Position numbers and translations under genes: made by a program. Under the pieces are notes generated by a model, which saw only the letters and a list, made by a program, of their open reading frames with translations, searched no databases and had not been told where the DNA came from. A stretch of 21,118 bases of DNA. Origin: Candidatus Komeilibacteria bacterium (GTDB lineage Bacteria > Patescibacteriota > Patescibacteriia > UBA1558). The stretch is from the NCBI GenBank assembly GCA_024654345.1, contig JANLIN010000056.1, positions 1 to 21,118 of the forward strand, given 5' to 3'. Positions 1,986 to 18,735 of the stretch are shown in pieces (the stretch's first letter is position 1; each line of letters begins with the position of its first letter).

Positions 1986-3284
1986 TTAATAAACACAGGC
2001 CTCTTCAAACTTGTTCTCATAATGCACAAGTTTTTTATACCTGGCTATTTCGTCGGGATCGCCGGTGGCCTTGGCAATATTATCACTCAGCTTGACCAGC
2101 TTGCAACCATTCGCCTCTGTCGGCTTGATTACGATCGAGAGCGGATTTAGCCCCAGAAAATCGAAAGTAAGATTGGTACCCCAGCCATTACCAATATTTA
2201 TTAGTCGGGCGTACTTCTTATACAAACTGATCATGAGGGGAAGTTTTAGACCGTCGCTATAGAAAAGCGTCTTACGATTGCTATCAATCTTCCGTCGCTT
2301 GTAGTGAGCGATCACTTTTTCACTATATTGCGCCGGGTCACCCGAATCCTGTCGAAATCCCAGCCATTGCTGGAAATCATTGTCTTTCATATTATGAAAA
2401 AAATAATCACTTCCGTATGTGTCTGTCGGTGGCACCATGCGATCAAATCCGTACATCGCCAGCCAACGATCCATAAATTCACGCTGGGCTTGAGACAGAT
2501 CTCCACCCGCCGCCAATTTCAAACCGGCAATAACCATCTGCGGCTCATGTGCCGACGTACCGCGCGGTATCAGGGAATCTTCTTTGGCAATAAAGACATT
2601 GGACGTACCCTGGAAGTTTTCCGGTAGCGCTCTGGCCACAGTATTGGTAACATATCTCTGCCACTCGGGATGAAAAGCACGGCGCGTGCCAAAATCCACA
2701 AACGGCAATAAGTATGGATAATTCTGCTCTTCGGACCACTGATTTAGACTACGAAGATCGCTTATTTTTGCTTTCAGCCGCGCTATACCGTTCTTGATTA
2801 GAGATTCTTTTTGGGAAATCGTCATCTCCTTCAGCCACGCCTGGCAAGCCAACGCGTTCACTATCTGCAAGGCCGGTATTTCCCAGTACGTTGATTGCTT
2901 CCAAGCCTGTGAGAATTCCAGCTCTAGCTGTCCGTCCGGCGATATCTCCAAATTATAATCTGACCACTGGAAATTTTTCAGAAATTCCAGGTATCCCGTG
3001 GTATCTGACAGATTCTCACCCCTTACTATGTTACCGATATATGCCACCTCGGCCGCTGTCGGCAGTACTGTTTTGACGTGGTCGAGCTCTTCTTTCAATC
3101 GGCCAATATCTATCAAGCGCCCCAGCTTCACCGCCGTCGTCCGGTTGATAAAGCTGGAATTTGTCTCGACATCTCTGTACCATTTATGGATGAACTGCCC
3201 CATTGTAAATTTGTACATATCAGTCTGTAGAAAAGACTTAATTATCGGCTCGTCCACCGTTTTTAGGATTTTATCTACTATCAT
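1986..3284 (-). CDS. pncB: Nicotinate phosphoribosyltransferase
   Basis: 432 aa; the N-terminal FLQTDMYKFTMGQ matches the NAPRTase hallmark (TDxYKxTM). Length is typical. The start overlaps the upstream gene's stop (ATGA), indicating translational coupling. Confidence 0.8.
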   Translation of the reverse strand: MIVDKILKTVDEPIIKSFLQTDMYKFTMGQFIHKWYRDVETNSSFINRTTAVKLGRLIDIGRLKEELDHVKTVLPTAAEVAYIGNIVRGENLSDTTGYLEFLKNFQWSDYNLEISPDGQLELEFSQAWKQSTYWEIPALQIVNALACQAWLKEMTISQKESLIKNGIARLKAKISDLRSLNQWSEEQNYPYLLPFVDFGTRRAFHPEWQRYVTNTVARALPENFQGTSNVFIAKEDSLIPRGTSAHEPQMVIAGLKLAAGGDLSQAQREFMDRWLAMYGFDRMVPPTDTYGSDYFFHNMKDNDFQQWLGFRQDSGDPAQYSEKVIAHYKRRKIDSNRKTLFYSDGLKLPLMISLYKKYARLINIGNGWGTNLTFDFLGLNPLSIVIKPTEANGCKLVKLSDNIAKATGDPDEIARYKKLVHYENKFEEACVY

Positions 3285-4138
3285 TTTGCCACTCCTGTCT
3301 TGTCATGAATTTCTGTATAGAGAGAGGTGGAGAAGGCACAGTGTGGAGAAAGAATTTGTCGCGCAATGCTGGTAATTGTACCTGTCAAATAACTTGACAG
3401 AACTTTCCACTGATCAGCGCCGTCAATCATCCCTAGACGCGTCGCCACCAAATGTACTCTTTGTTCAAAAACAGCCACGGCATCTTCTATTTCACCTTTC
3501 GCGCCTAGTGCGGGCGGTCCCCCATTGGTTGATATAGTTCTTAACACGTTAACCGGCACGAAATGCTTCAATTTCTTAAAAACAGCGTCTATATCATGCA
3601 TGAAAGAATGCAAACGACCATTAGCGCCAATGAGAATATCCAAAGAGTCCATAAAACTATCGGCATAGCCAACCATACTGGCGGCCACATATACCGGGAC
3701 ATCATCGTCTTCGACGTACATCATAAAATGAGGGCAGCTGTGTCCTAAGTGAGGAATGTTCAGACGACGAGCCACTTCTATTGCAACCGCGTCCACACCC
3801 ATATTCGAAGCGCCATGCGCTATCCGTACGTCTATTCCGGGGAATTCGGTCTGAAGTACCCTGATGCAGTTCGCCAACAGCGATTTACAAGCTTCTTCGT
3901 AAGCTCCAACTTTTACACCCCAGACAGCGCACTGATCAGCCGATAGATGGCTATACCCATTCATTCCTAAGACTATCGTATCCTTGCCCTCCAGATGTTG
4001 CCTAGTGGCTTTTTCGTATTCTTCCGGAAAGAAGATCGGCTTGCGCGTAAAAATTCTTTTCCGCCCATTATATTCTACAACCACGCCTCCTTTGACTTTT
4101 TTAATGGATCCCAGTTTATCGGCCTTATTCTTTGCCAT
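3281..4138 (-). CDS. Conserved hypothetical Rossmann-fold protein, possibly SLOG-superfamily (DprA/LOG-like) nucleotide-processing enzyme, co-translated with pncB
   Basis: 285 aa starting at MAKNK, with a GTGAGG RBS 9 nt upstream; I prefer this start to the track's 4189 start. The segment RIAHGASNMGVDAVAIEVARRL resembles the DprA/SLOG glycine-rich Rossmann motif (SGxAxGxDxxAHxxAL). It overlaps the pncB start by 4 nt. Confidence 0.45.
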   Translation of the reverse strand: MAKNKADKLGSIKKVKGGVVVEYNGRKRIFTRKPIFFPEEYEKATRQHLEGKDTIVLGMNGYSHLSADQCAVWGVKVGAYEEACKSLLANCIRVLQTEFPGIDVRIAHGASNMGVDAVAIEVARRLNIPHLGHSCPHFMMYVEDDDVPVYVAASMVGYADSFMDSLDILIGANGRLHSFMHDIDAVFKKLKHFVPVNVLRTISTNGGPPALGAKGEIEDAVAVFEQRVHLVATRLGMIDGADQWKVLSSYLTGTITSIARQILSPHCAFSTSLYTEIHDKTGVAK

Positions 4139-4237
4139 AGTAAAAACCTCACTTCCTAAATTGTGTTTATTAATAATATTAATGTACATACTTCTTAAGA
4201 AGCTTGGTCCGAAATAGTTCAGACAAAACTTTTTAAG

Positions 4238-4276: not shown

Positions 4277-4984
4277 CTAACCGATCAGTTCTCGGGTAGT
4301 CGTGAGTCTCACGCCAGCCGTTTTGAAAAACATATTCATTTCCTCATGACCCGCCTCGTCTCCCAAATCCTGCGTGGCATCTTTTACCACAGTCACCTGA
4401 TAGCCAAGGTCTGCTAAATCCAAAGCCGTCCAACCAACACAATAGCGATATACCAGCCCACAGACAAATATTTTTTTCGGGCGCATCTGCTTAATAATAG
4501 GTAAGAGGACTAGCTCACGTCCGGCATTGTCTCTCACGGCGCTATAAGAATCACGCGTCGGCTCCAATCCTTTCCTTACTACAACGCCATCGTATTCAGC
4601 AAAGGCCTGATGTTTTCCGGCTTCTTTACCTAGGCCATGATCCGGCCATAAGGTTTGATGATGAATTCTACGTAAGTAAAGTTTGAGATCATCGACGGTA
4701 AATTTAGCCTTTGGTCCTATTTTGCTATCTTCTTTCGTCCACTGCGCCACTTCCTCGTAGGTAAGCACGTAAAAATTCGGTAAGTCGACGTATGAACTGG
4801 CAAAAGATATATGACCAACCTCATGTACATCTAGCGTGAATACTCTCTTATCCTCCGGGAAAAGCGGTAGGATTCTCTTGATAGGTGCAATCACTTTGTC
4901 GCCACCTTGTACAGCTAATCCGCCACCCGGCATGAAAGTGAGAGTAGCATCTATCACCACCAGTGCGTCCTGTCTTCCTATCAT
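4277..4984 (-). CDS. pncA: Nicotinamidase (isochorismatase family, PncA)
   Basis: 235 aa. It has ALVVIDATLTF (catalytic Asp region), a metal-binding DVHEVGH (D-x-H-x3-H) and the catalytic Cys context FVCGLVYRYCVGWT. An AAGGAG RBS lies upstream. Confidence 0.75.
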   Translation of the reverse strand: MIGRQDALVVIDATLTFMPGGGLAVQGGDKVIAPIKRILPLFPEDKRVFTLDVHEVGHISFASSYVDLPNFYVLTYEEVAQWTKEDSKIGPKAKFTVDDLKLYLRRIHHQTLWPDHGLGKEAGKHQAFAEYDGVVVRKGLEPTRDSYSAVRDNAGRELVLLPIIKQMRPKKIFVCGLVYRYCVGWTALDLADLGYQVTVVKDATQDLGDEAGHEEMNMFFKTAGVRLTTTRELIG

Positions 4985-5177: not shown

Positions 5178-5966
5178 TTAGTTGCCGAAACCACCCATGG
5201 CGGCCTGGCTGAAATTGGCGGCTGATTGACTGGCGCGAACTGCCGATTGAGAGAAAAGCAGGAAGGCCTGGCGAATCTCTTTCTCTGTATTCTTCGGTGT
5301 CAGGATCCATTCATCAGGTATGCCCATGTCCGAGAATACCCGTTGGAAATCCGTACTACCATCATCAATGCCCATCGCTGCCACGATATGCATCTCTGTT
5401 TTTAACATGTCCTTCACCACCACCGCCACATCCTTGGCGCTGTACTTACGCGAGTGCTGATCACTGCCGTCGCTGATGATAAGCGTGATGGTGCGGGCCG
5501 GGACGCCATTGTCGGAGAATTCCTGCGCCTTGGCCAGAACAGTACCCAGTAGTACTATCGTCTGGTCATAGAGTGGGGTGCCCTGGTCAGGATTGTAGTT
5601 CTGAGTATCCATTATTTCCGCTTGTTCCACCATCGTGTACGGGTAAAGGATCTTCCCGTTTAGATAGCGATTATGCGCTAGTATATTGTCTTTCTGTTTA
5701 GAGGCGCGCAGGGAATTGAGTACCAGATTGTGACCGTTCCTGACCGCGGCGGCATTGCCGGCGAAACGGATAGACCCGGAATCATCCGGCATCATGCTTA
5801 CCAGTATTACCTCGCTGGCTTCAACATCGTCGACGGCCACGCCCAGCGCCGCCTGTATTTCGGCGCCGATATCCAGGACATTTAGTATCTGCTCAGATTG
5901 GGCGGACAGATTACCGTCTGCTTTGGCGTTGTTCACCAACTGACTTACTTTGCTTTGCTTGTTCAT
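5178..5966 (-). CDS. von Willebrand factor A (vWA) domain protein, TerY-like
   Basis: 262 aa from MNKQSK, with a strong AGGAGG RBS; I prefer this start to the track's upstream-extended 6128 start, which overlaps the previous gene. The MIDAS motif DDSGSI (DxSxS) and a second ISDGSD are present. The C-terminus has a Q/S-rich tail. Confidence 0.75.
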   Translation of the reverse strand: MNKQSKVSQLVNNAKADGNLSAQSEQILNVLDIGAEIQAALGVAVDDVEASEVILVSMMPDDSGSIRFAGNAAAVRNGHNLVLNSLRASKQKDNILAHNRYLNGKILYPYTMVEQAEIMDTQNYNPDQGTPLYDQTIVLLGTVLAKAQEFSDNGVPARTITLIISDGSDQHSRKYSAKDVAVVVKDMLKTEMHIVAAMGIDDGSTDFQRVFSDMGIPDEWILTPKNTEKEIRQAFLLFSQSAVRASQSAANFSQAAMGGFGN

Positions 5967-6042
5967 TTTGTGACCTCCTGGCTCCGACGATAGTGTCGAA
6001 GCCGTTTTTTGTGATTGAAAAATATTTTTCCGTGCTAGTGTC

Positions 6043-7086
6043 TTATAGATTGAGATCGGGCCAATCTTCCAAAGGTTGAGTCGTCTTGACGACATGCATG
6101 CCCGCCGCCGCAAAACGACGAAACGCATCGTCGGCTTGGTCGGTGAAATCTATAATACCCGGCACGACCACGGCGGAAGTACAATCTTCCAACAAGTAAA
6201 CCTTTTTGGCCAGTTCCGGATCGTGAGCTTGTATTTCATTGAGTAAGTCATCAATCGTCCAAGCCACGCAATGACTTTTGGCTTGGCCGGCAATGATAAC
6301 AGCGTCATATTTCATCAGCTTCTCAATAAAACGAGAATTACTCTGTGCGATCGGACGTCCGGTATGATCTTCCGTTATTTCCGGCTTCAAGACAGAATAA
6401 TTTTCTGTCAGTGGATTACCGCCTTTGATTTCGAAACCGGTTTGGCTGGTGCGTGCTAAATTGTGAAAGAAAACAGCTTCTTCGATAACCGCCGTCAGAG
6501 CGTGACCAATACCACCCAGCATGGCGTGGTAGGTCCAGATCATCAACGGATATTTTCCGTCTGCCGTCAGCTTGGCCACGTAGTGGCGCGCATATTTCTG
6601 CAGAAAGCTGTAACTACCGGTAATACTGTTGGCGATGGCGGGGTTTACTTTCCATATGCCCTTCTCAACATCCGTCAGCGTAATGATGGTTTGATTCCCG
6701 ATCGGATGTTCGCCCTGATCATTGATCCAAAACACCGGATGAAAGATTTGCATGGCGGTATGAGTGTCCATTGTCGGATCTATCTCTGTAATAACGCCTA
6801 GATAGCGATAGATGAATTCCGCCAATCGGACATTATCTTCGATGGCGCCCTTGCCACTGCGCCCCCCTACAAAAAGTTCAAAATCCGGGAGGCAGAAAGT
6901 ATTCTGCGCGTCTATTACCATCAAGCAGAGACGCGTCTTATCAACGGCGGCTTTCTTGATCTTGTGTTTGTCGGCCCATTCTCTGGCATCACGCGCCCGC
7001 TGTTCGTACGGAACTCTCCAGACACTATCGGCTTTGGACGCATCAAAGTGCTGAGGAATGGGTAATTCGTGGACTGATCTTTTCAT
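6043..7086 (-). CDS. Large nicotinamidase/isochorismatase-family amidase paralog
   Basis: 347 aa. Motifs are CLMVIDAQNTFC (catalytic Asp), DTHTAMQIFH (D-x-H-x6-H metal site as in nicotinamidases) and AGQAKSHCVAWTIDDL (catalytic Cys). About 150 extra residues lie between the metal site and the Cys relative to canonical ~190-aa enzymes. An AAAGGAG RBS lies upstream. Confidence 0.7.
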   Translation of the reverse strand: MKRSVHELPIPQHFDASKADSVWRVPYEQRARDAREWADKHKIKKAAVDKTRLCLMVIDAQNTFCLPDFELFVGGRSGKGAIEDNVRLAEFIYRYLGVITEIDPTMDTHTAMQIFHPVFWINDQGEHPIGNQTIITLTDVEKGIWKVNPAIANSITGSYSFLQKYARHYVAKLTADGKYPLMIWTYHAMLGGIGHALTAVIEEAVFFHNLARTSQTGFEIKGGNPLTENYSVLKPEITEDHTGRPIAQSNSRFIEKLMKYDAVIIAGQAKSHCVAWTIDDLLNEIQAHDPELAKKVYLLEDCTSAVVVPGIIDFTDQADDAFRRFAAAGMHVVKTTQPLEDWPDLNL

Positions 7087-7137: not shown

Positions 7138-9003
7138 CTATGTTAAACGTAACAGATTTATTTCTCGACGCGATACCACGTAGAGCCCCTCTCGACCAGG
7201 ATGTAGATAAGACTGAGAGCTGACAAAGGGCTCGGTGTCAGGATACTCCTGCACGATCGCCAGGTTGTGGCCGCTTATACCAATCTTGAATATTCCTTCA
7301 TCGCTAGTCGAAAGTATTTTATCGCCGACCGGACATTTGCCGCGAATAGTACCAAGCCAACTACCATCGTCGGCTTCGGCGCTACCGATAGCGATAACGC
7401 TTCCGGCCGGCCCTATTACTTCGCACCGGTTAACGGTTTTGCCTTGAACGCGGCTACTGGTAAAAAACCAGGCGTTGTCAGCGACAAAAACAGTGGTGGC
7501 GTCGAGTAACTGACCCGTTATAGCGACCATATTTTTTACATCCTTCAATCCTTTCCGCTGATAATCAAACAAAAAGGTACGTCGGATTTCACCGGCCTGA
7601 TAAAATCCCAATCCCTGGTGTGCCCCGCTCCAAAGCAGAGTCTGATTGGATAAGGCCTGTCCCATGAATTCTTGGCCAAATTTTCCCCGGCGTAACAATT
7701 GTCCATTGTTGAGCCAAAACAGCCGGCCTGCACTGCTGTCAAACATCGGGATGTGGCGATAGTGATCCACGGCGTACTTGTTTTCTAGACGTTCCCGGTG
7801 GTATTCATGGATAACTCCGTTTAGACCCACCCAGGTAGTCTCGCCCCAGATCCGAAATCTGGCATTGGCGAAAGTTTCCGGAAAAGGTATTTTCCAACCC
7901 TCTTCTCTAACCAGTTGACCGTTTTCTCGGACCAGCCAGATTAGTCGCTCATTGTCAGTAGTAGCCTGGACAATCTGTCCTTTCGTCTGATAAAGACGAG
8001 TTGCCTTCACGGTACCGCGAATTACCGTTACCTCCCGGATAGCCGCCGGCGCCGCCGTACTACAAGTCGGACAGATGGATCGTGCGTGTTCCTGACCACA
8101 CTGCTGACAGGTAGTAAAACGGGTTAATTGCAGTAGTTTTTCCGGAAAGGGGTTTCTTTTGTCCTGGACAAATGTCTGATAAAAATAATCCAGCAAATCA
8201 TCAGAGAGAACACTGTAGTGAACCGCCGGCTTAGGATACTTTACTTCCGGATGAAAGACGGTAATCCGCTTGAGCGGACGTAGCTGATGGATTATTCGCT
8301 GTTTCTTGTCAGCCGGTCGGTAGATACCCCCATAAGGATCTACATACAGCAGACTATTCATCAGCATGACTGTAAAGGCATACCAATCCGAGGAGCTTGT
8401 AAACGGTTTGTATAGCTCGAGCGATTGGCGACGCGCGTCGGTCAGCAAAGGGTCAAGGAATTTGACAGTAAACATCCGACAAAGATAGCGTCCAAACTGA
8501 TAGCTGTCGGTATCTATCAGATAGGCTTGCTCATCTTTCACCAGAACATTCAAATCGTTAAAATCACCAACCACTACTTTCCTATCGTGCAAAGCCGAAA
8601 CAGCTTGGAGAAGCGAGCTGAATATTGTCAGTAGCGCGTTATTGTCCACTCTCCCCGGCCGGAACTTCTTGTCGCTGAAGCGCAACATTACTTCCGAGTC
8701 GGCAATGAGTGGCATACTGTAACCAACTATAAATCCCTTGCTATCTGACGCCAGTGCCACCGGTGCCACTATATTGGCCGGCAATCCAGCAGGAAAATCT
8801 GACAGTTTTGTTTGATGTTCCTCTAGCCTGTGCCGGGCCCCTTGTTGCTCCAGCGGCAGTCCGCGCAAATCGGGATGATGGGGAGACTTAAAAATTTTAA
8901 GTGCCAGTTTATCGTTTAGTCGATAAATATCGGCTTCTCCGCCCTTGCCAATGGCTTGCGCGGGAGTGATATTTATCGGATTGCCGGCTAAATAGATTTT
9001 CAT
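7138..9003 (-). CDS. Ser/Thr protein kinase-like protein with central zinc ribbon and C-terminal beta-propeller-like repeats
   Basis: 621 aa. It has a glycine-rich loop IGKGGEADIY, a Lys in ALKIFK, a catalytic loop HDRKVVVGDFNDLNVLV and LIDTDS (DFG-like). CQQCGQEHARSICPTC forms a CxxC...CxxC ribbon. Repeated W/G-rich blades follow. A GGAGG RBS lies upstream. The start overlaps the PP2C stop (ATGA). Confidence 0.7.
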   Translation of the reverse strand: MKIYLAGNPINITPAQAIGKGGEADIYRLNDKLALKIFKSPHHPDLRGLPLEQQGARHRLEEHQTKLSDFPAGLPANIVAPVALASDSKGFIVGYSMPLIADSEVMLRFSDKKFRPGRVDNNALLTIFSSLLQAVSALHDRKVVVGDFNDLNVLVKDEQAYLIDTDSYQFGRYLCRMFTVKFLDPLLTDARRQSLELYKPFTSSSDWYAFTVMLMNSLLYVDPYGGIYRPADKKQRIIHQLRPLKRITVFHPEVKYPKPAVHYSVLSDDLLDYFYQTFVQDKRNPFPEKLLQLTRFTTCQQCGQEHARSICPTCSTAAPAAIREVTVIRGTVKATRLYQTKGQIVQATTDNERLIWLVRENGQLVREEGWKIPFPETFANARFRIWGETTWVGLNGVIHEYHRERLENKYAVDHYRHIPMFDSSAGRLFWLNNGQLLRRGKFGQEFMGQALSNQTLLWSGAHQGLGFYQAGEIRRTFLFDYQRKGLKDVKNMVAITGQLLDATTVFVADNAWFFTSSRVQGKTVNRCEVIGPAGSVIAIGSAEADDGSWLGTIRGKCPVGDKILSTSDEGIFKIGISGHNLAIVQEYPDTEPFVSSQSYLHPGREGLYVVSRREINLLRLT

Positions 9004-9824
9004 GTTATTCCCCTCCTTTCCGGACCGACCTTTCGTATGACAACCAGGGTGGTGTCATCAGTTAGGTGGCCATTTTGCACTTCCATCCGGCTCTCCTGCC
9101 AGAGTGGCCGACTAACGTCGCGGTTAACCAACGTAAGCTGACGACGAACACTGTCCGGATTCTTGAAATACCGATCTTCCGTCCAGAAATTCAGCAACGG
9201 ACCGACTTCTCTGTCCTGACCGGGCACGATTTTATTGGCCGCCGCTACATAATCACCAATACCGTCAGTGGCTATCAACAGATGAGAAATGGCCGCCGTT
9301 TTTTCCTGCACCTTCATCTGCCACATAAACCGCTGATCCATGGGTTGAAATAGACCATAAGCGATGTAGGGTGGCTGATTGTCAGAAAATGGTCCGAGGG
9401 CGATATAATTGTCATTGCAGACAATTAAACCGTCACCGATTGCCGCTATGACCAGTCTATCTTCGTGGATTACCGCCGCGATAGCGGTGAATAGACCGTA
9501 GTCCTCGATGAATCTATTGGCGCCGCTAGGGTTGGGTCGTGTCAGCCAATACAACTCACGTAAAACATCCAAGCGCACGGTATCCCAGTACCGCGTGGAG
9601 CTGATATTCAGAGACAAATTTCTTTTCAGGCTGTTGGCTATCAGCTGAGCACCCAACTTGGCGCCAACTTCACTGCCGGGACTACTGCCACAACCGTCTG
9701 TCACAACGGCGATGATACTGTCATTGCCAGGCAAGATGCAGAAGGCGTCTTGATTGTTACGACCAGATTGCCGATGGTGACGTCCGATGACACTACCGCC
9801 GGCTATTTCAAACAAATCTTTCAT
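9000..9824 (-). CDS. PP2C-family Ser/Thr protein phosphatase
   Basis: 274 aa. Motifs are GRHHRQSGRNNQDAF (R-x-x-NQD), VVTDGCGSSPGSEVGAKLG (DGxGG...G) and LIATDGIGD (second metal-binding Asp). An AAGGAG RBS lies upstream. Confidence 0.75.
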   Translation of the reverse strand: MKDLFEIAGGSVIGRHHRQSGRNNQDAFCILPGNDSIIAVVTDGCGSSPGSEVGAKLGAQLIANSLKRNLSLNISSTRYWDTVRLDVLRELYWLTRPNPSGANRFIEDYGLFTAIAAVIHEDRLVIAAIGDGLIVCNDNYIALGPFSDNQPPYIAYGLFQPMDQRFMWQMKVQEKTAAISHLLIATDGIGDYVAAANKIVPGQDREVGPLLNFWTEDRYFKNPDSVRRQLTLVNRDVSRPLWQESRMEVQNGHLTDDTTLVVIRKVGPERRGIT

Positions 9825-9932
9825 GTTTATCTCCTTTTATGTATGTAGTTTTCAAAGATCTGGAACGCCTATCTCTTAGAGAAAGGATTCTACGTCAACC
9901 CGGAGTCTGGCCGAGCTGACGTTGAACTCTTT

Positions 9933-9961
9933 CTTAGTGTTAAATATACACTTACTAATAT
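9933..9961. repeat. Copy A of a ~27-bp direct repeat CTTAGTGTwAAwATATACAC..TA.TA flanking nrtR (palindromic core GTGTTAAATATACAC)
   Basis: It matches 10661-10689 in the same orientation at about 24 of 27 positions. It lies between the nrtR stop and the PP2C-kinase operon start. Confidence 0.5.
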
Positions 9962-9981
9962 GTAAAAAATTTTCTGTTTTT

Positions 9982-10659
9982 TTACAAAATATTAACCACT
10001 GCCAGAGATCGACTGGTAAATTCAAATAATGCCGCCGGCCGATTGGCCTCACCCCTTCTCTTCTTGCCGGTGGTCTTCACCAATCCTAACGACCCGACTT
10101 TTTTGCGAAAATTTCGCTTGTCGATCTCCTGATCCAAAATTATCTCGTATACTTTCTGTAATTCCGACAAAGTAAACTGCCGGGGTAACAAACTGTAAAC
10201 TATGTTGGTATAGCCGAGCTTGGAGCGCAGTCTCTTTACACCCGTCTTTAATATTTCCGCATGATCGTAAGCCAGCGCAGGTAGCTTGGCCACCGGCCAC
10301 CAACGCACGTCCGCGTATTCGGCGGTAGTCTTTAACATCAAACTTTTATCATACGGTAATAATGCGTAGTAGGCGACGGACAATACTCGACCGTAGGGAT
10401 CTCTTTTTTCCCCGCCAAAAGCATATAGCTGTTCCAAGAAAATATCAGACACGCCGGTCTTGGCCTGAAGGTGGCGACGCGCGGCTTTCTCGACTGATTC
10501 GCTGATTTTAACCATGCCGCCCGGCAAAGCCCATTTTCCTTGATAAGGCTTCTTTTTCATCTTTATCAACAGAACGTTGAGCGCCTCGCCTCGCAGGCTG
10601 AAAATAACCACATCCGTGGCGGCGGCGACAAATTTGAATTTTTGATAAGGTTTACTCAT
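9982..10659 (-). CDS. nrtR: NrtR-family Nudix-related transcriptional regulator of NAD metabolism
   Basis: 225 aa. The N-terminal Nudix fold has GKWALPGGMVKISESVEKAARRHLQAKTG. The C-terminal winged-helix region has FTLSELQKVYEIILDQEIDKRNFRKKV, typical of NrtR. It is located inside an NAD salvage cluster. Confidence 0.65.
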   Translation of the reverse strand: MSKPYQKFKFVAAATDVVIFSLRGEALNVLLIKMKKKPYQGKWALPGGMVKISESVEKAARRHLQAKTGVSDIFLEQLYAFGGEKRDPYGRVLSVAYYALLPYDKSLMLKTTAEYADVRWWPVAKLPALAYDHAEILKTGVKRLRSKLGYTNIVYSLLPRQFTLSELQKVYEIILDQEIDKRNFRKKVGSLGLVKTTGKKRRGEANRPAALFEFTSRSLAVVNIL

Positions 10660-10660
10660 A

Positions 10661-10689
10661 CTTAGTGTAATATATACACATAGTATTTC
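10661..10689. repeat. Copy B of the nrtR-flanking direct repeat (palindromic core GTGTAATATATACAC), 6 nt upstream of the nrtR start codon
   Basis: Same motif as 9933-9961. The 15-bp core is palindromic (GTGTA-ATATA-TACAC). It sits where the nrtR SD would be; nrtR has no obvious SD. Confidence 0.5.
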
Positions 10690-10769
10690 AAGTAGCGACT
10701 TTAGTCAATAGTCTCCTGTGGATAAGTAGACTACCCGTACTACCTAACCAGCATCCAACCCCAGCCCAG

Positions 10770-11285
10770 GTGACCATCGATAAACAGTTCGATCCATATG
10801 AGGGTTATGTTTCTTACTATTCCTATAAAAGACGTCACCTAATTAATTGCGACGGAAAATTATATTTCATTGCTCTCGGTCGCCCAAAGGTATCAAGTCA
10901 GAAAAATAAAAACGAAGTCGCTGATAAGCTTCACCACATTCTGGCTATACAAATTTCCCTCACCCCGGAGCAGTGGACAGGGAAGAATATAAGAGAAAAA
11001 TTAAGTGAAATTCGTCTCACCACAGCACAGAGCTATTTGACAAACATCAGCCAGCGACTAGAAAAGATGTTTGTGTTTGCCATGCGAGACGAAATTGACA
11101 GTTTTGAATCACTGGTCCAGCTGATGGGCGAAAGAGGGTATGTCATGCAACGCGGTGACTCAACAGACCTCTTGATTATTCTACTAAAAAATGAGGTGGC
11201 TTATGAGCTACGTACAAAGTCGGATAATTATTCTCCCGAAAAATTAAAACAACTTGCCATATCTCGGACTCTTGACGCTTTTTAA
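10770..11285 (+). CDS. Hypothetical protein (171 aa), divergent from nrtR; start uncertain (GTG)
   Basis: Long ORF ending directly at a strong rho-independent terminator. No recognisable motifs. No ATG near the 5' end, so the start codon is uncertain. Confidence 0.4.
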   Translation: MTIDKQFDPYEGYVSYYSYKRRHLINCDGKLYFIALGRPKVSSQKNKNEVADKLHHILAIQISLTPEQWTGKNIREKLSEIRLTTAQSYLTNISQRLEKMFVFAMRDEIDSFESLVQLMGERGYVMQRGDSTDLLIILLKNEVAYELRTKSDNYSPEKLKQLAISRTLDAF

Positions 11286-11309
11286 AGCCTCCAAAAAACG
11301 TCTACTCAG

Positions 11310-11339
11310 CCCCGTTCACAATGGACGGGGTTTTATTTT
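11310..11339 (+). terminator. Rho-independent terminator (CCCCGT-loop-ACGGGG followed by TTTTATTTT)
   Basis: GC stem plus T-run immediately after the 10770..11285 ORF. Confidence 0.7.
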
Positions 11340-15338: not shown

Positions 15339-16166
15339 ATGGCTCTTCGAAAGAGAAGATGGTACCAAATTTTCGGCTTAATCGCGGATATGTTCAGAAA
15401 TGCAATATCTGATAATATCTCCGACGATATTAAGCTGGAATCAGATGCTCGTCAAATGATGGCCGGATTAGAACAAATGTCCAATCTGGTCTCCTACAGC
15501 ATGACCATGGCTGATAATAAATACAAGGAACTTGCACTGAAGGTGCAAAATTATCAGAGCCTTCAAGCTCAAGCTCAGAAGTTCTTAGAGCAGGGCAAAG
15601 AAGAAATGGCGCGTCGCTGCGTTGCCTTAAAACAGCAAGCGGCTACAGATATTGAAACGCTGAAAAGCGACTATGTTACTCTTCAGCAAGACGCCGAAGA
15701 CAAAGTGGCTCGTTTCAAATCGGAAAAGAGAAAAGTGGATACAAGACTTAGGGAATTACCGCGTTTGAAACAGGATGTCAAGCTGATCCAGCAGCAGAAG
15801 GAAATTGATAAAACTTTTTCCACTCTTAGCCTCGAGAGCCCGAGTTCATCTTTTGATGAGATAGCGGGCGAAATAGGCATGAAAAAGGGTCAGCTTCAAA
15901 ACAAGCGACTCTTAGAGGGGGATCCGACTGCTGCTATTGACAATGCCATAGTCAATCAATTACAGGAAGATAATATTAACCAGGAGATGGCTCGGCTACG
16001 TCAGAAAATTAATGCTCCCACTATTGAAGATGCAGAATATACGGAAGTAAATGATCCCAACCTTGGTGAAGCGTTAAATTTGCTGGAAAAGCCACGCTTT
16101 GGAAATATTCCCGATACAAATATTCGCGGCGCCAACGTCCACAATGAACAGAAAAAGGAGGAATAG
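15339..16166 (+). CDS. pspA: PspA/IM30/Vipp1-family (ESCRT-III-like) membrane-stress protein
   Basis: 275 aa coiled-coil protein. The N-terminus RRWYQIFGLIADMFRNAISDNISD parallels the PspA [23 protein letters not shown]. A central LESPSSSFDEIAGE parallels the PspA ALSGISSSSAMSAFERMEEKI. The RBS is AGGAGGT. Confidence 0.7.
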   Translation: MALRKRRWYQIFGLIADMFRNAISDNISDDIKLESDARQMMAGLEQMSNLVSYSMTMADNKYKELALKVQNYQSLQAQAQKFLEQGKEEMARRCVALKQQAATDIETLKSDYVTLQQDAEDKVARFKSEKRKVDTRLRELPRLKQDVKLIQQQKEIDKTFSTLSLESPSSSFDEIAGEIGMKKGQLQNKRLLEGDPTAAIDNAIVNQLQEDNINQEMARLRQKINAPTIEDAEYTEVNDPNLGEALNLLEKPRFGNIPDTNIRGANVHNEQKKEE

Positions 16167-16168
16167 AC

Positions 16169-16870
16169 ATGAACTGGCAGGATCTATTAGAATGGCAAAA
16201 TCTTATTTTTGCCCTTCCTTTTGTCGGAGCTTTGTTTTATTTAGTATTATTGGCTACTGGTACCTTCTCGGCCGATCATGACATAGACCATGACATAGAC
16301 CATGACATAGACCATGACATAGACCATGACATAGACCATGATCATGGCATAGAACACACTCATGATGTCAGCGGCTTTATGAAGGCTCTAACTCTACTAG
16401 GTCTCGGCAAGGTACCACTCTCGATCTTATTGACCACCTTTTTCATCACATTTGGCTTCTTTGGACTTGTAGCAAATGGAGTTCTTCAAAAAATCCTAGT
16501 CTTTCCGATAGTGTATCTGTGGGTATCACTTGCTACCACTCTATTCCTATCAATCATCTTCACTCGCTCAATAGCGATCGGGTTGGCCAAAATTCTACCG
16601 ACGACTGAAACTTATGCTTCAAAGCCGGGAGATTTGATCGGCCTAGGCGGAGAAATAATCTACACCGCCACCGAGTTCAGCGGAACATGTGATGTTTACG
16701 ATAAGTATAACACTCTGTTACGCAAGCAGTGCCGCATAAAAAAGGGAAATGAGCCCATTCCTCCAGGGAAGAAAGTAGTCCTTCTGGAATACGATGAGGC
16801 TAATGGCGAATACATTGTATCTGAAAATAACTTAATGGAATCTATCACATCACAATCACAGGAGGTATAG
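16169..16870 (+). CDS. NfeD/YqiJ/YuaF-like membrane protein (flotillin-associated) with N-terminal (DHDI)n His/Asp-rich repeat and C-terminal OB-fold-like domain
   Basis: 233 aa with AGGAGG RBS. TM helices flank a DHDIDHDIDHDIDHDIDHDIDHDHGIEHTHD tract. The C-terminal beta-rich domain follows. It sits immediately upstream of flotillin, with a 2-nt gap. Confidence 0.6.
   Translation: MNWQDLLEWQNLIFALPFVGALFYLVLLATGTFSADHDIDHDIDHDIDHDIDHDIDHDHGIEHTHDVSGFMKALTLLGLGKVPLSILLTTFFITFGFFGLVANGVLQKILVFPIVYLWVSLATTLFLSIIFTRSIAIGLAKILPTTETYASKPGDLIGLGGEIIYTATEFSGTCDVYDKYNTLLRKQCRIKKGNEPIPPGKKVVLLEYDEANGEYIVSENNLMESITSQSQEV
16274..16348 (+). repeat. In-frame 12-bp tandem repeat (CATGACATAGAC) x5 perfect plus degenerate flanking copies, encoding (HDID)n
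   Basis: Five identical contiguous 12-mers at about 16277-16336, with diverged copies on each side. Confidence 0.85.
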
Positions 16871-16872
16871 TA

Positions 16873-18735
16873 ATGGAACATCATACAAAAAAGAATTCCG
16901 GCGGTCTTATGGGGGTCGTCGCAGTACTATTCGGTCTCGCCTTCATAATCCTGCCCCTGATGTTCAGTGAGGCAGTCACAGGCACAGCGCAAGTTATTTT
17001 AACATCGTTCGGCGTTCTCCTGCTACTCACGGGCGGCATAGTGGTAACTATCACCAAGCTCTACGTCAAAACGTCGGCTAATGAGGCCTTCGTTCGAACA
17101 GGTATGGGGGGTGAAAAGACTATAATTTCCGGCGGTGCCCTTGTTCTTCCGGTCGTTCACAACATTATCTGGGTTTCGTTGGAAACAATGAAACTAGTAG
17201 TGAAAAGAACTGGTGCAACAGCTTTGATTTGCGGCGATAAATTGAGAGCTGATGTTGTCTCAGAATTCTACATAAAGATAGAAAGAGATGCTCAATCAGT
17301 GCAGTCGGCAGCTACCTCCCTTGGCGGCAGATCAGTTAACGGGGATAGCATTAAGGAGCTGGTGGAAGAAAAATTCGTCTCAGCTCTGCGTACTGTATCT
17401 TCAACAATGGAATTGATGGACTTACATCAAAACCGCGCCAAATTCGCTGGCGATGTCCAAGCAATAGTTAGTAAGGATCTCGCGCCAAACGGATTGACCT
17501 TGGAAACAGTGACAATATCTACCTTGGATCAAACACCGGTCAATTCTATGCAATCCGGCGAGAACATATTCGATGCTCAGGGAGCAAGAAAAGTTGCAGA
17601 AATCGTTGAAAGCCAACGCGTTGCTACAACTAAAATCAAAACCAAAGCTGATCAGGACGTTAAATCCGAAGAGGTTACTCGCGATAAATTCATCTTTGCC
17701 CAGGAATATGAAGCAGCTAAAGCTGAAGCTGAGCGCGATGCCTTAATAAAGAAGGTACAGGCAGAGCAAGAGCAAGAAGCTGCTACCGTTACCGCACAGC
17801 AGGAAGAGAAGACTGGAATTGCACAGGTGAAGAAAGAGGAAAACATTGCTCTAGCCGGTGTTACAAAAGAAAAGAACCTTGAAGTAGCTAACAAACAACG
17901 CGAGCAGGCTGCTGAAACCGCGGACATCGAAAAGCAGAAAGCAGTTGAATTGGCAGCGCAGGATAAAGAAATCGCTGTTGCCGGTAAAGAAAAGGAAAAA
18001 GCAGAGGCTCAAAAGTTGAAATTTGATGCTGAAGCCCTCGAAGAAGAATCAAGACAGTCGGTCAGGACAGTAACCGAAGTTGAAACTGCTGACCGTGCCA
18101 AGAAGACAGCTATCATAGCAGAGGAAGCGGAAGCCGCCAAATCCAAGGTAAAAGAAAATACAAAGGCGGATGTAGACGCATATACAGTAACAAAAAAAGC
18201 CTCTGCCGATATGGAAGCGGCCGAAAACAAGGCGCAGGCTATTAGAACTCAGGCACAGGCTGATAGAGACGCCAAAGTTGCCGAAGCTGAAGGTAAAAAA
18301 GCTCTGGAAATGATTCCGGTTGAAGTTGAAGGCGCCCGCGTAGAAGTTCGTCAAAAGGACGTCGAAGTAACAGGCACTGAACTGAAATACAAGGCTGAGC
18401 ACCAGGAAATTTCCAAGGAATTGGAAATAGCGTTAGCCAATATTGCGAAGGATAAAGAAATAGGAGTTGCCAAAGCTCAGGCTCTGGGTCAGGCACTTAG
18501 CTCAGCTAACATGCAAATCTGGGGAGATAGCAATATGATGAGCACTATTACCAAATTGTTTACAAATGGTCAGGCAGGAGCCGCCGCTGTTAACGGTTTT
18601 ATGAGCCAACTTGACGAAGAAGGTGAAAATGTCCTCGTGATATTAAAGACCTTAGTTGAAAAGTTTGGCCATAAACTTGGCGACAAAGCCAAAGCCAAAA
18701 TAACTGACGTTATCAGTGAAACAGTAAAAAAGTAA
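16873..18735 (+). CDS. Flotillin-like SPFH/band-7 protein with N-terminal membrane anchor and long E/A/K-rich coiled coil
   Basis: 620 aa with AGGAGG RBS. N-terminal TM helices are followed by an SPFH-like region (VRTGMGGEKTIISGGALVLPVVHN...). A flotillin-type EA-repeat coiled coil spans about 300 aa. A C-terminal globular tail follows. Confidence 0.75.
   Translation: MEHHTKKNSGGLMGVVAVLFGLAFIILPLMFSEAVTGTAQVILTSFGVLLLLTGGIVVTITKLYVKTSANEAFVRTGMGGEKTIISGGALVLPVVHNIIWVSLETMKLVVKRTGATALICGDKLRADVVSEFYIKIERDAQSVQSAATSLGGRSVNGDSIKELVEEKFVSALRTVSSTMELMDLHQNRAKFAGDVQAIVSKDLAPNGLTLETVTISTLDQTPVNSMQSGENIFDAQGARKVAEIVESQRVATTKIKTKADQDVKSEEVTRDKFIFAQEYEAAKAEAERDALIKKVQAEQEQEAATVTAQQEEKTGIAQVKKEENIALAGVTKEKNLEVANKQREQAAETADIEKQKAVELAAQDKEIAVAGKEKEKAEAQKLKFDAEALEEESRQSVRTVTEVETADRAKKTAIIAEEAEAAKSKVKENTKADVDAYTVTKKASADMEAAENKAQAIRTQAQADRDAKVAEAEGKKALEMIPVEVEGARVEVRQKDVEVTGTELKYKAEHQEISKELEIALANIAKDKEIGVAKAQALGQALSSANMQIWGDSNMMSTITKLFTNGQAGAAAVNGFMSQLDEEGENVLVILKTLVEKFGHKLGDKAKAKITDVISETVKK

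Follow-up and report, generated by a model that had tools for sequence, protein, structure and literature searches.

Two putative NrtR operators flanking nrtR ahead of a PP2C, kinase, amidase and vWA gene cassette in a Candidatus Komeilibacteria contig

Contig JANLIN010000056.1 of a Candidatus Komeilibacteria bacterium (assembly GCA_024654345.1; Patescibacteriota), the whole 21,118-bp length of which constitutes the window analysed here, carries a minus-strand nrtR gene (9982-10659) that is flanked by a direct repeat. One copy of the repeat (copy A, 9934-9954) follows the nrtR stop codon and precedes, on the same strand, a cassette of genes encoding a PP2C-type phosphatase, a kinase-like protein, a nicotinamidase-like cysteine hydrolase (referred to below as the amidase) and a vWA-domain protein, beyond which is an island of genes related to nicotinamide adenine dinucleotide (NAD). 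The other copy (copy B, 10662-10682) is situated immediately upstream of the nrtR start codon. Judged from sequence, both copies very probably represent NrtR operators, with copy B mediating autorepression of nrtR and copy A heading the operon that follows.

Palindromes at both ends of nrtR

The gene between the repeats is, by its domain content, a bona fide NrtR. The 225-aa product comprises an N-terminal Nudix domain with a degenerate Nudix box (Pfam NUDIX, 5.5e-17) and a C-terminal NrtR winged-helix domain (Pfam NrtR_WHD, 1.3e-24), and its N-terminus aligns with those of 28 homologues, so that translation truly begins with the ATG at 10659. In the homologue alignment the catalytic REUXEE stretch of the Nudix box reads RHLQAK; the box is likewise degenerate in non-catalytic NrtR sensors (PMC2330246). 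The nearest relatives in the PDB by sequence are BtAraR (5bs6; 2.5e-41) and Shewanella NrtR (3gz5; 5e-34).

The sequences TTAGTGTTAAATATACAC (9934-9951) and TTAGTGTAATATATACAC (10662-10679) are the sole matches to the repeat in the window, even when three mismatches are allowed; 0.06 matches are expected, and two or more were obtained in none of 100 shuffles. The shorter pattern GTGT-N7-ACAC is also found at these two window positions only. The two copies are therefore real and non-random, and they are located where the initial annotation had placed them. As an ungapped direct repeat they extend over 32 nt with 81% identity (9926-9957 and 10654-10685). Each copy was initially described as having a 15-bp palindromic core with the consensus GTGTwAAwATATACAC; the palindromes are confirmed, but 15 bp is the inner part of a 21-bp symmetric unit (7+7+7), and the consensus is one letter too long, the ungapped form being GTGTWAWATATACAC. 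In full, copy A reads TTAGTGT-TAAATAT-ACACTTA (minus strand TAAGTGT-ATATTTA-ACACTAA) and copy B TTAGTGT-AATATAT-ACACATA (coding, that is minus, strand TATGTGT-ATATATT-ACACTAA). A position weight matrix (PWM) built from 86 distinct sites of related loci, with a training median of 22.2 bits, assigns 24.8 bits to copy A and 22.8 bits to copy B, whereas no other position in the window exceeds 2.4 bits. The motif is thus not a common AT-rich sequence in this window, and the low-complexity explanation that had been envisaged for it did not hold.

Characterized NrtR sites are 21-bp palindromes with a GT-N7-AC core, placed either across part of the promoter or in the interval from it to the start codon (Rodionov et al., 2008, NAR 36:2047; PMC2330246). 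Both window sites share this form, and their positions are in keeping with it: copy B overlaps a predicted promoter by 3 nt, and copy A, 109 nt before the PP2C ATG, is compatible. Published layouts include nrtR-#pncA-pncB, nrtR-#prs-nadV and #nrtR-pncA-#pncB-nadD-nadE (PMC2330246, Table 1; # denotes a site), so that the #nrtR-#operon arrangement of the window has precedent.

The predicted nrtR promoter (10680-10708, minus strand), which is of a strong sigma-70 type, consists of a -35 element TTGACT (10708-10703), a 17-nt spacer and a -10 element TACTAT (10685-10680), the last three bases of which are the first three bases of the operator. The coding strand upstream of nrtR accordingly runs TTGACT, 17 nt, TACTAT, directly followed by GTGTATATATTACACTAA, GT and the ATG. 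It is because the -10 hexamer overlaps the operator that the outer half-site of copy B is TAT instead of TTA, and the predicted transcription start falls inside the operator. The same fusion, in which TTGACA, 16-18 nt and TAnTAT or TAnAAT end at operator position 3, is present at 24 of 58 non-redundant nrtR-proximal sites, a count that includes all close relatives, and the equivalent position together with a TAT-GTGT half-site was found in L001, L146, L161, L165-L167, L089 and others of the comparison loci introduced below. It can readily be inferred from this overlap that NrtR would repress its own gene by occlusion of the -10/+1 region. Experimental precedent comes from Mycobacterium smegmatis, where NrtR represses its own gene (PMC6800001).

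The predicted nrtR leader is about 14 nt long and lacks a Shine-Dalgarno (SD) sequence, which accounts for the initial remark that the repeat replaces the SD region. Copy B is indeed close to the ATG, but not at the 6 nt then given: the 21-bp palindrome ends 2 nt, and the GTGT...ACAC core 5 nt, from the start codon. In many of the related loci, too, just 0-13 nt separate the operator from the estimated nrtR start, and an SD sequence is again absent. Very short leaders, or none at all, are probable for the nrtR mRNAs of this subfamily.

Divergent from nrtR is an open reading frame (ORF; 10770-11285, plus strand) with no family match. Its listed GTG start (10770) is open to doubt, since GAGGG shortly precedes an ATG near 10806. 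Copy B, some 90-125 nt upstream of the ORF, probably has no part in its control. After the ORF comes a terminator-like hairpin (11308-11332, plus strand; 11-bp stem) that is stronger than any other in the scanned half of the window.

Conservation of the sites and of the cassette link

A first set of 80 loci from GTDB species genomes was picked solely for encoding a relative of the window NrtR and was scanned with the pattern TTAGTGT-N7-ACACTAA, allowing up to three mismatches over 846 kb. The 80 loci contain 109 matches, compared with a mean of about 39 in shuffled loci; 40 are within 100 nt upstream of an nrtR start (32 of them within 50 nt) and 12 within 200 nt downstream of an nrtR stop. 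The motif also occurs upstream of pncA or pncB in L030, L033 and L058.

An arrangement of site, nrtR and second site is found in 11 non-redundant loci. In addition to the window these are L001, L002, L008, L022, L078, L146/L147, L161/L162, L165, L166 and L167, in each of which the counterpart of copy A is located just downstream of nrtR. The gene behind the second site varies. It belongs to the PP2C operon in the window, L001, L146 and L161, is pnuC with a nadR-like gene in L165, is a ribosylnicotinamide-kinase-like gene followed by nadE, pncA and pncB in L167, and encodes a Band_7 protein in L166 (8130-9950). Since the bracket recurs with different downstream genes, being kept across NrtR proteins of 47-64% identity with different neighbours, it constitutes a conserved regulatory layout and not the scar of an insertion.

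Association of NrtR with the cassette was assessed after this set had been combined with a second, of 80 metagenomic loci encoding relatives of the 347-aa amidase; 17 non-redundant loci contain PP2C and kinase genes with at least 900 nt of upstream sequence. The immediate neighbour is nrtR, either on the same strand or divergent, in 14 of the 17, and one or two NrtR-type sites are present between nrtR and PP2C in 13. The distance to PP2C ranges from L089 and L094, where the site ends 11-12 nt ahead of the ATG, to L146, where it is about 555 nt away, and in divergent loci the sites abut a TTGAC -35 element facing PP2C and lie between that element and the PP2C start. A site precedes the amidase gene in L098, L108 and L109, which have no adjacent nrtR, and simpler layouts (#nrtR-amidase-pncB, nrtR<##>amidase and #amidase-vWA) were also seen. 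Two cultured cyanobacteria possess the divergon nrtR<##>PP2C-kinase-amidase-vWA, namely Prochlorothrix hollandica PCC 9006 (L164, KB235942.1, 2918-8786) and Leptolyngbya sp. 'hensonii' (L163, MQTZ01000003.1, 2517-10559). The latter additionally has an ADP-ribosylglycohydrolase gene inserted behind PP2C, a further tandem pair of NrtR sites ahead of the kinase gene, and two Uma2-family genes that break up the locus. Where an organism is named, the loci come from Patescibacteria, Saccharibacteria, Actinomycetota and cyanobacteria, so that the link between NrtR and the cassette is a conserved feature and not a peculiarity of the window.

Proposed operator function and its alternatives

The suggestion in the initial annotation that the repeats are operators, providing nrtR autoregulation together with control of the downstream triad, is therefore supported in silico by agreement with the published consensus, the presence of a bona fide NrtR, the conserved promoter overlap, and the occurrence of the motif beside nrtR and before the cassette in many unrelated genomes. 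An NrtR dimer bound at copy B would block RNA polymerase and so repress nrtR itself, while NrtR at copy A would either occlude a weak promoter or block read-through from the nrtR promoter. By analogy with characterized NrtR proteins, ADP-ribose, a product of NAD cleavage, would bind to the catalytically dead Nudix domain and cause release of the repressor. NAD consumption would in this way switch on both units, with the autoregulatory site then restoring repression. The appearance of a direct repeat arises solely because the units headed by the two operators share one strand.

Copy A starts 27 nt past the nrtR stop codon. A T-tract followed by TTTACA (9961-9971, minus strand) ends 6 nt before copy A and may serve as a -35 or UP-like element; a T6-8 tract, often followed by AC, ends 6-9 nt before the post-nrtR site in ten loci (the window, L161, L001, L146, L165, L166, L167, L002, L089 and L094). 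The AT-rich centre of the operator is often -10-like, and in copy A it contains TATATT. From these sequence features we suspect that copy A overlaps a weak promoter whose -10 element lies in the operator centre; it is equally possible that transcription reads through from the nrtR promoter and that copy A would act as a roadblock. No convincing terminator was detected between nrtR and PP2C in a terminator scan, in which the counts equalled the shuffle expectation. The T-tract was also considered as the U-tail of an nrtR terminator, a candidate that was rejected as no G+C-rich stem precedes it.

Several points weigh against the operator reading or limit its reach. The promoter scan yielded no consensus promoter for the PP2C operon, such sites being as numerous as expected from shuffles. 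A long imperfect hairpin of 55 nt (9880-9934, minus strand), beginning at the last base of copy A, occupies the interval between copy A and the PP2C start, and the intergenic RNA (9825-9981), whose structure it dominates, folds with -42.9 kcal/mol (z = -4.9; none of 200 shuffles folds as well), which makes the mode of action of copy A uncertain. The PWM and the mismatch scans were seeded with the consensus of the window itself, so that the agreement counted at the 14 fixed positions is circular in part; neither the clustering beside nrtR nor the A/T preference in the N7 spacer depends on this seeding. The genome scan covered this 21-kb contig, with its two sites. Lastly, the best solved relative of the window NrtR is the arabinose-responsive BtAraR, and ADP-ribose as the effector is accordingly suggested by genomic context alone.

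The intergenic hairpin is not followed by a U-run, and when the entire window was scanned against Rfam with a riboswitch in the 109-nt leader in mind, no match was obtained. In L161 the equivalent region contains an analogous long hairpin as well as a terminator-like hairpin. The sequence CTTTGAAAAC is present at 9848-9857 (minus strand), and three Patescibacteria loci, the window, L161 (~10845-10860) and L146, share a conserved element CTTTGAAAA(C) that precedes the PP2C start by 25-80 nt. As a -35 element CTTTGAAAAC was rejected, being too near the SD sequence and ATG of PP2C.

An improbable variant accepts both copies as NrtR operators and denies copy A a role in PP2C regulation. Copy A would instead be an auxiliary autoregulatory operator, for instance one that loops with copy B across 728 bp of nrtR, or a roadblock at the end of transcription, and PP2C would have its own unregulated promoter nearer its start. 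Such an arrangement would explain why no promoter is assignable at copy A, would leave room for the long hairpin and the conserved CTTTGAAAAC that separate copy A from the PP2C ATG in the window, and likewise in L161 or L146, and would accommodate the remote site of L146. The region before PP2C that includes the SD sequence is nevertheless too tight for a -35/-10 pair at CTTTGAAAAC, and NrtR is described as dimeric and is not known to form tetramers (PMC2330246). The comparison loci also argue for a role at PP2C, in that the sites of L089 and L094 nearly reach its ATG, those of the divergent layouts are interposed between the PP2C start and the abutting TTGAC -35, the second pair in L163 precedes the kinase gene, and L098, L108 and L109 retain a site before the amidase where nrtR is not adjacent.

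Less probable still is that the palindromes are recognized by another regulator, or reflect chance AT-rich similarity, with NrtR a bystander. The AT-rich centre of the motif and the sugar-responsive nature of the best solved relative could be taken in this sense, since BtAraR of Bacteroides (PDB 5bs6; PMC4666351) is an NrtR-family protein that controls arabinose genes, shares the Nudix and winged-helix architecture of the window NrtR, and is its closest solved structure by sequence. Unlike BtAraR, the window NrtR is located by an NAD island (pncA, pncB, and ADP-ribose-pyrophosphatase-like Nudix and NAD-kinase-like genes). Chance is excluded within the window by the mismatch and PWM scans, the motif matches the published NrtR core exactly and co-occurs with nrtR across many phyla in loci chosen by NrtR similarity alone, and no other DNA-binding protein is consistently encoded nearby.

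The least credible proposal is that nrtR arrived as a mobile cassette and left behind either target-site-like repeats, as raised in the initial annotation, or terminal repeats; two similar sequences in the same orientation do flank a single gene, and their similarity exceeds the palindrome by a few bases, but the -10 hexamer and the start codon explain the additional flank of copy B, each copy is itself an inverted repeat fitting the family-wide operator consensus, the bracket recurs around NrtR proteins of 47-64% identity, no transposase or integrase adjoins nrtR in the window, and the motif also occurs singly, in tandem, upstream of divergent nrtR genes, and upstream of pncA, pncB or the amidase gene kilobases away from nrtR.

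With respect to the effector of NrtR operators such as those proposed here, ADP-ribose suppresses NrtR binding in vitro (PMC2330246). Relatives of the window NrtR adjoin pnuC, nadR-like, nadE, NADAR and ADP-ribosylglycohydrolase genes. Among Patescibacteria loci, genes for ADP-ribose processing were observed near nrtR in three cases, with NADAR directly upstream in L161 (9464-9913), an ADP-ribosylglycohydrolase gene in L165 (11346-12446) and a Macro-domain gene in L166 (1380-1913). These neighbours are consistent with ADP-ribose as the relevant metabolite.

The cassette and the NAD salvage genes

The first gene after copy A (9000-9824, minus strand, as are all genes of the cassette) encodes the PP2C-type phosphatase (Pfam PP2C_2, 5e-22). 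The kinase-like protein (7138-9003; 621 aa) has a Pkinase match of 1e-4, which is below the Pfam cut-off, and a LanL-type kinase domain match of 3.4e-8, together with a CxxC...CxxC zinc ribbon, read in the translation, behind the kinase region and a C-terminal region of about 300 aa without known fold. Neither the amidase nor the vWA protein gave a significant match in Pfam, NCBIfam, PADLOC or PDB sequence searches; the kinase, vWA and amidase domain calls of the initial annotation nonetheless appear to hold, for the latter two by fold rather than by Pfam.

The amidase (6043-7086; 347 aa) was assigned as a nicotinamidase-like cysteine hydrolase from the names of its homologues in source records ('isochorismatase', 'nicotinamidase-related amidase'), a weak BLASTP match to the window PncA (5e-05) over the KG...YS and catalytic-Cys region, invariant residues and a fold match. 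Residues D59, D107, H109, H116, K221 and C273, tested as an Asp-Lys-Cys triad plus an Asp/His metal site, are invariant in 25 homologues, and an AlphaFold model of moderate confidence (predicted local distance difference test score, pLDDT, 79.6) has as its best fold match the nicotinamidase of Acinetobacter baumannii (2wta; E 2e-6; template-modelling score 0.65 on the target). At E≤1e-5 the family numbers at least 8,000 database entries, including forms of 580-585 aa, and is covered by no Pfam or NCBIfam model; identity among Patescibacteria, cyanobacteria and Actinomycetota members is about 70%. The window hence encodes two such hydrolases, the amidase and a canonical PncA.

The vWA-domain protein (5178-5966; 262 aa) is identical to a 262-aa database protein, and its true start is 5966. 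The longest ORF (5178-6128) is 54 codons too long and runs into the amidase gene, whereas homologues start at 5966, which leaves a gap of 76 nt after the amidase stop codon. Its AlphaFold model (pLDDT 86) has integrin I and vWA domains as top fold matches, and the MIDAS-type residues D61, D62, S63, S65, T130 and D166 are invariant.

Triads of this kind, termed TerY-P, are reportedly treated in work by Anantharaman, Iyer and Aravind in 2012 and by Gao et al. in 2020. A TerY-P triad combines a vWA protein bearing a MIDAS-type motif, a PP2C phosphatase, and a Ser/Thr-kinase-like protein with a zinc ribbon or an OB fold at its C-terminus (PMC11090510). The window cassette appears to have the same three-component architecture. 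It differs in the amidase gene placed between the kinase and vWA genes, and in its association with a regulator of the NAD/ADP-ribose type and NAD salvage genes, and not with tellurite-resistance, restriction or CoCoNuT genes. The vWA protein has no match to the Pfam VWA model and none at all in PADLOC, and a PADLOC scan of the three proteins gave a few weak matches (MkoA, PD-T4-6, PDC-M21C and mad6, with E of 5.6e-05 or weaker), none of them TerY-P-named, although the presence of TerY-P models in that release was not checked. The cassette is accordingly called TerY-P-like and is not assigned to the family.

The window NrtR resembles the regulons described by Rodionov et al. (2008) in combining a Nudix and winged-helix regulator bearing a degenerate Nudix box with pncA and pncB nearby. 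In contrast to those regulons, the host belongs to the Patescibacteria (candidate phyla radiation, CPR), a group outside that work, the second operator is followed first by genes not for NAD enzymes of established function but for PP2C, a kinase with a zinc ribbon, an amidase and a vWA protein, and pncA and pncB in the window are without a site of their own. The self-repression proposed here is shared with M. smegmatis NrtR, which represses its own gene and NAD genes (Gao et al., 2019, eLife 8:e51603; PMC6800001); the mycobacterial regulon is that of de novo NAD synthesis (nadA-nadB-nadC), arranged in a divergon, whereas here a same-strand bracket of two sites adjoins salvage genes and a signalling cassette. 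No paper linking NrtR to a PP2C, kinase, vWA and amidase cassette was found in the literature searched, which did not extend to curated regulon databases. Rodionov et al. (2008) mention unnamed NrtR targets 'nrtX-nrtY' (PMC2330246).

The repeats themselves are routine, adding a CPR example, with a neat fusion of promoter and operator, to a known family of NrtR operators; it is the link between NrtR and the cassette that merits follow-up. As a tentative proposal, short of being the likelier outcome, the triad and the ~350-aa amidase may constitute a previously undescribed member of the NrtR regulon, extending from Patescibacteria and Saccharibacteria to Actinomycetota and cyanobacteria, in which an ADP-ribose-induced phospho-switch would gate nicotinamide recycling or, more speculatively, would sense or counter an NAD-depleting attack. 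If this is true, triads of the TerY-P type gain a concrete metabolic input and output. A widespread and highly conserved four-gene cassette, two proteins of which are without Pfam assignment, consistently positioned behind NrtR sites and beside pncB, offers a handle on TerY-P-like triads and on an unannotated nicotinamidase-like family, and the divergon of the cultured cyanobacteria makes experiments feasible. The arrangement also suggests two layers of control over NAD salvage in reduced CPR genomes, one transcriptional, by ADP-ribose via NrtR, and the other by phosphorylation.

The NAD island downstream of the cassette consists, on the minus strand, of pncA (4277-4984), a gene for a conserved 302-aa protein (3281-4189), pncB (1986-3284), and genes for an ADP-ribose-pyrophosphatase-like Nudix protein (1177-1884) and an NAD-kinase-like protein (251-1075). 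The gene order is the same in L161, where a counterpart of about 300 aa (17324-18217) to the 302-aa protein, which has no family match, is likewise encoded between pncA and the next NAD gene. A PWM search ahead of pncA, pncB and the Nudix and NAD-kinase-like genes of the window revealed no third NrtR site, nothing there scoring above 2.4 bits. The gaps between the downstream genes are 51-193 nt, and the sole terminator-like match, at 5059-5043, is weak; the PP2C transcription unit possibly continues into pncA, pncB, the Nudix gene and the NAD-kinase-like gene.

Far from nrtR, at 15339-18735 on the plus strand, is a string of PspA-like, YqiJ-like and Band_7 (SPFH) genes, and its resemblance to the Band_7 gene behind the second site of L166 may be coincidence.

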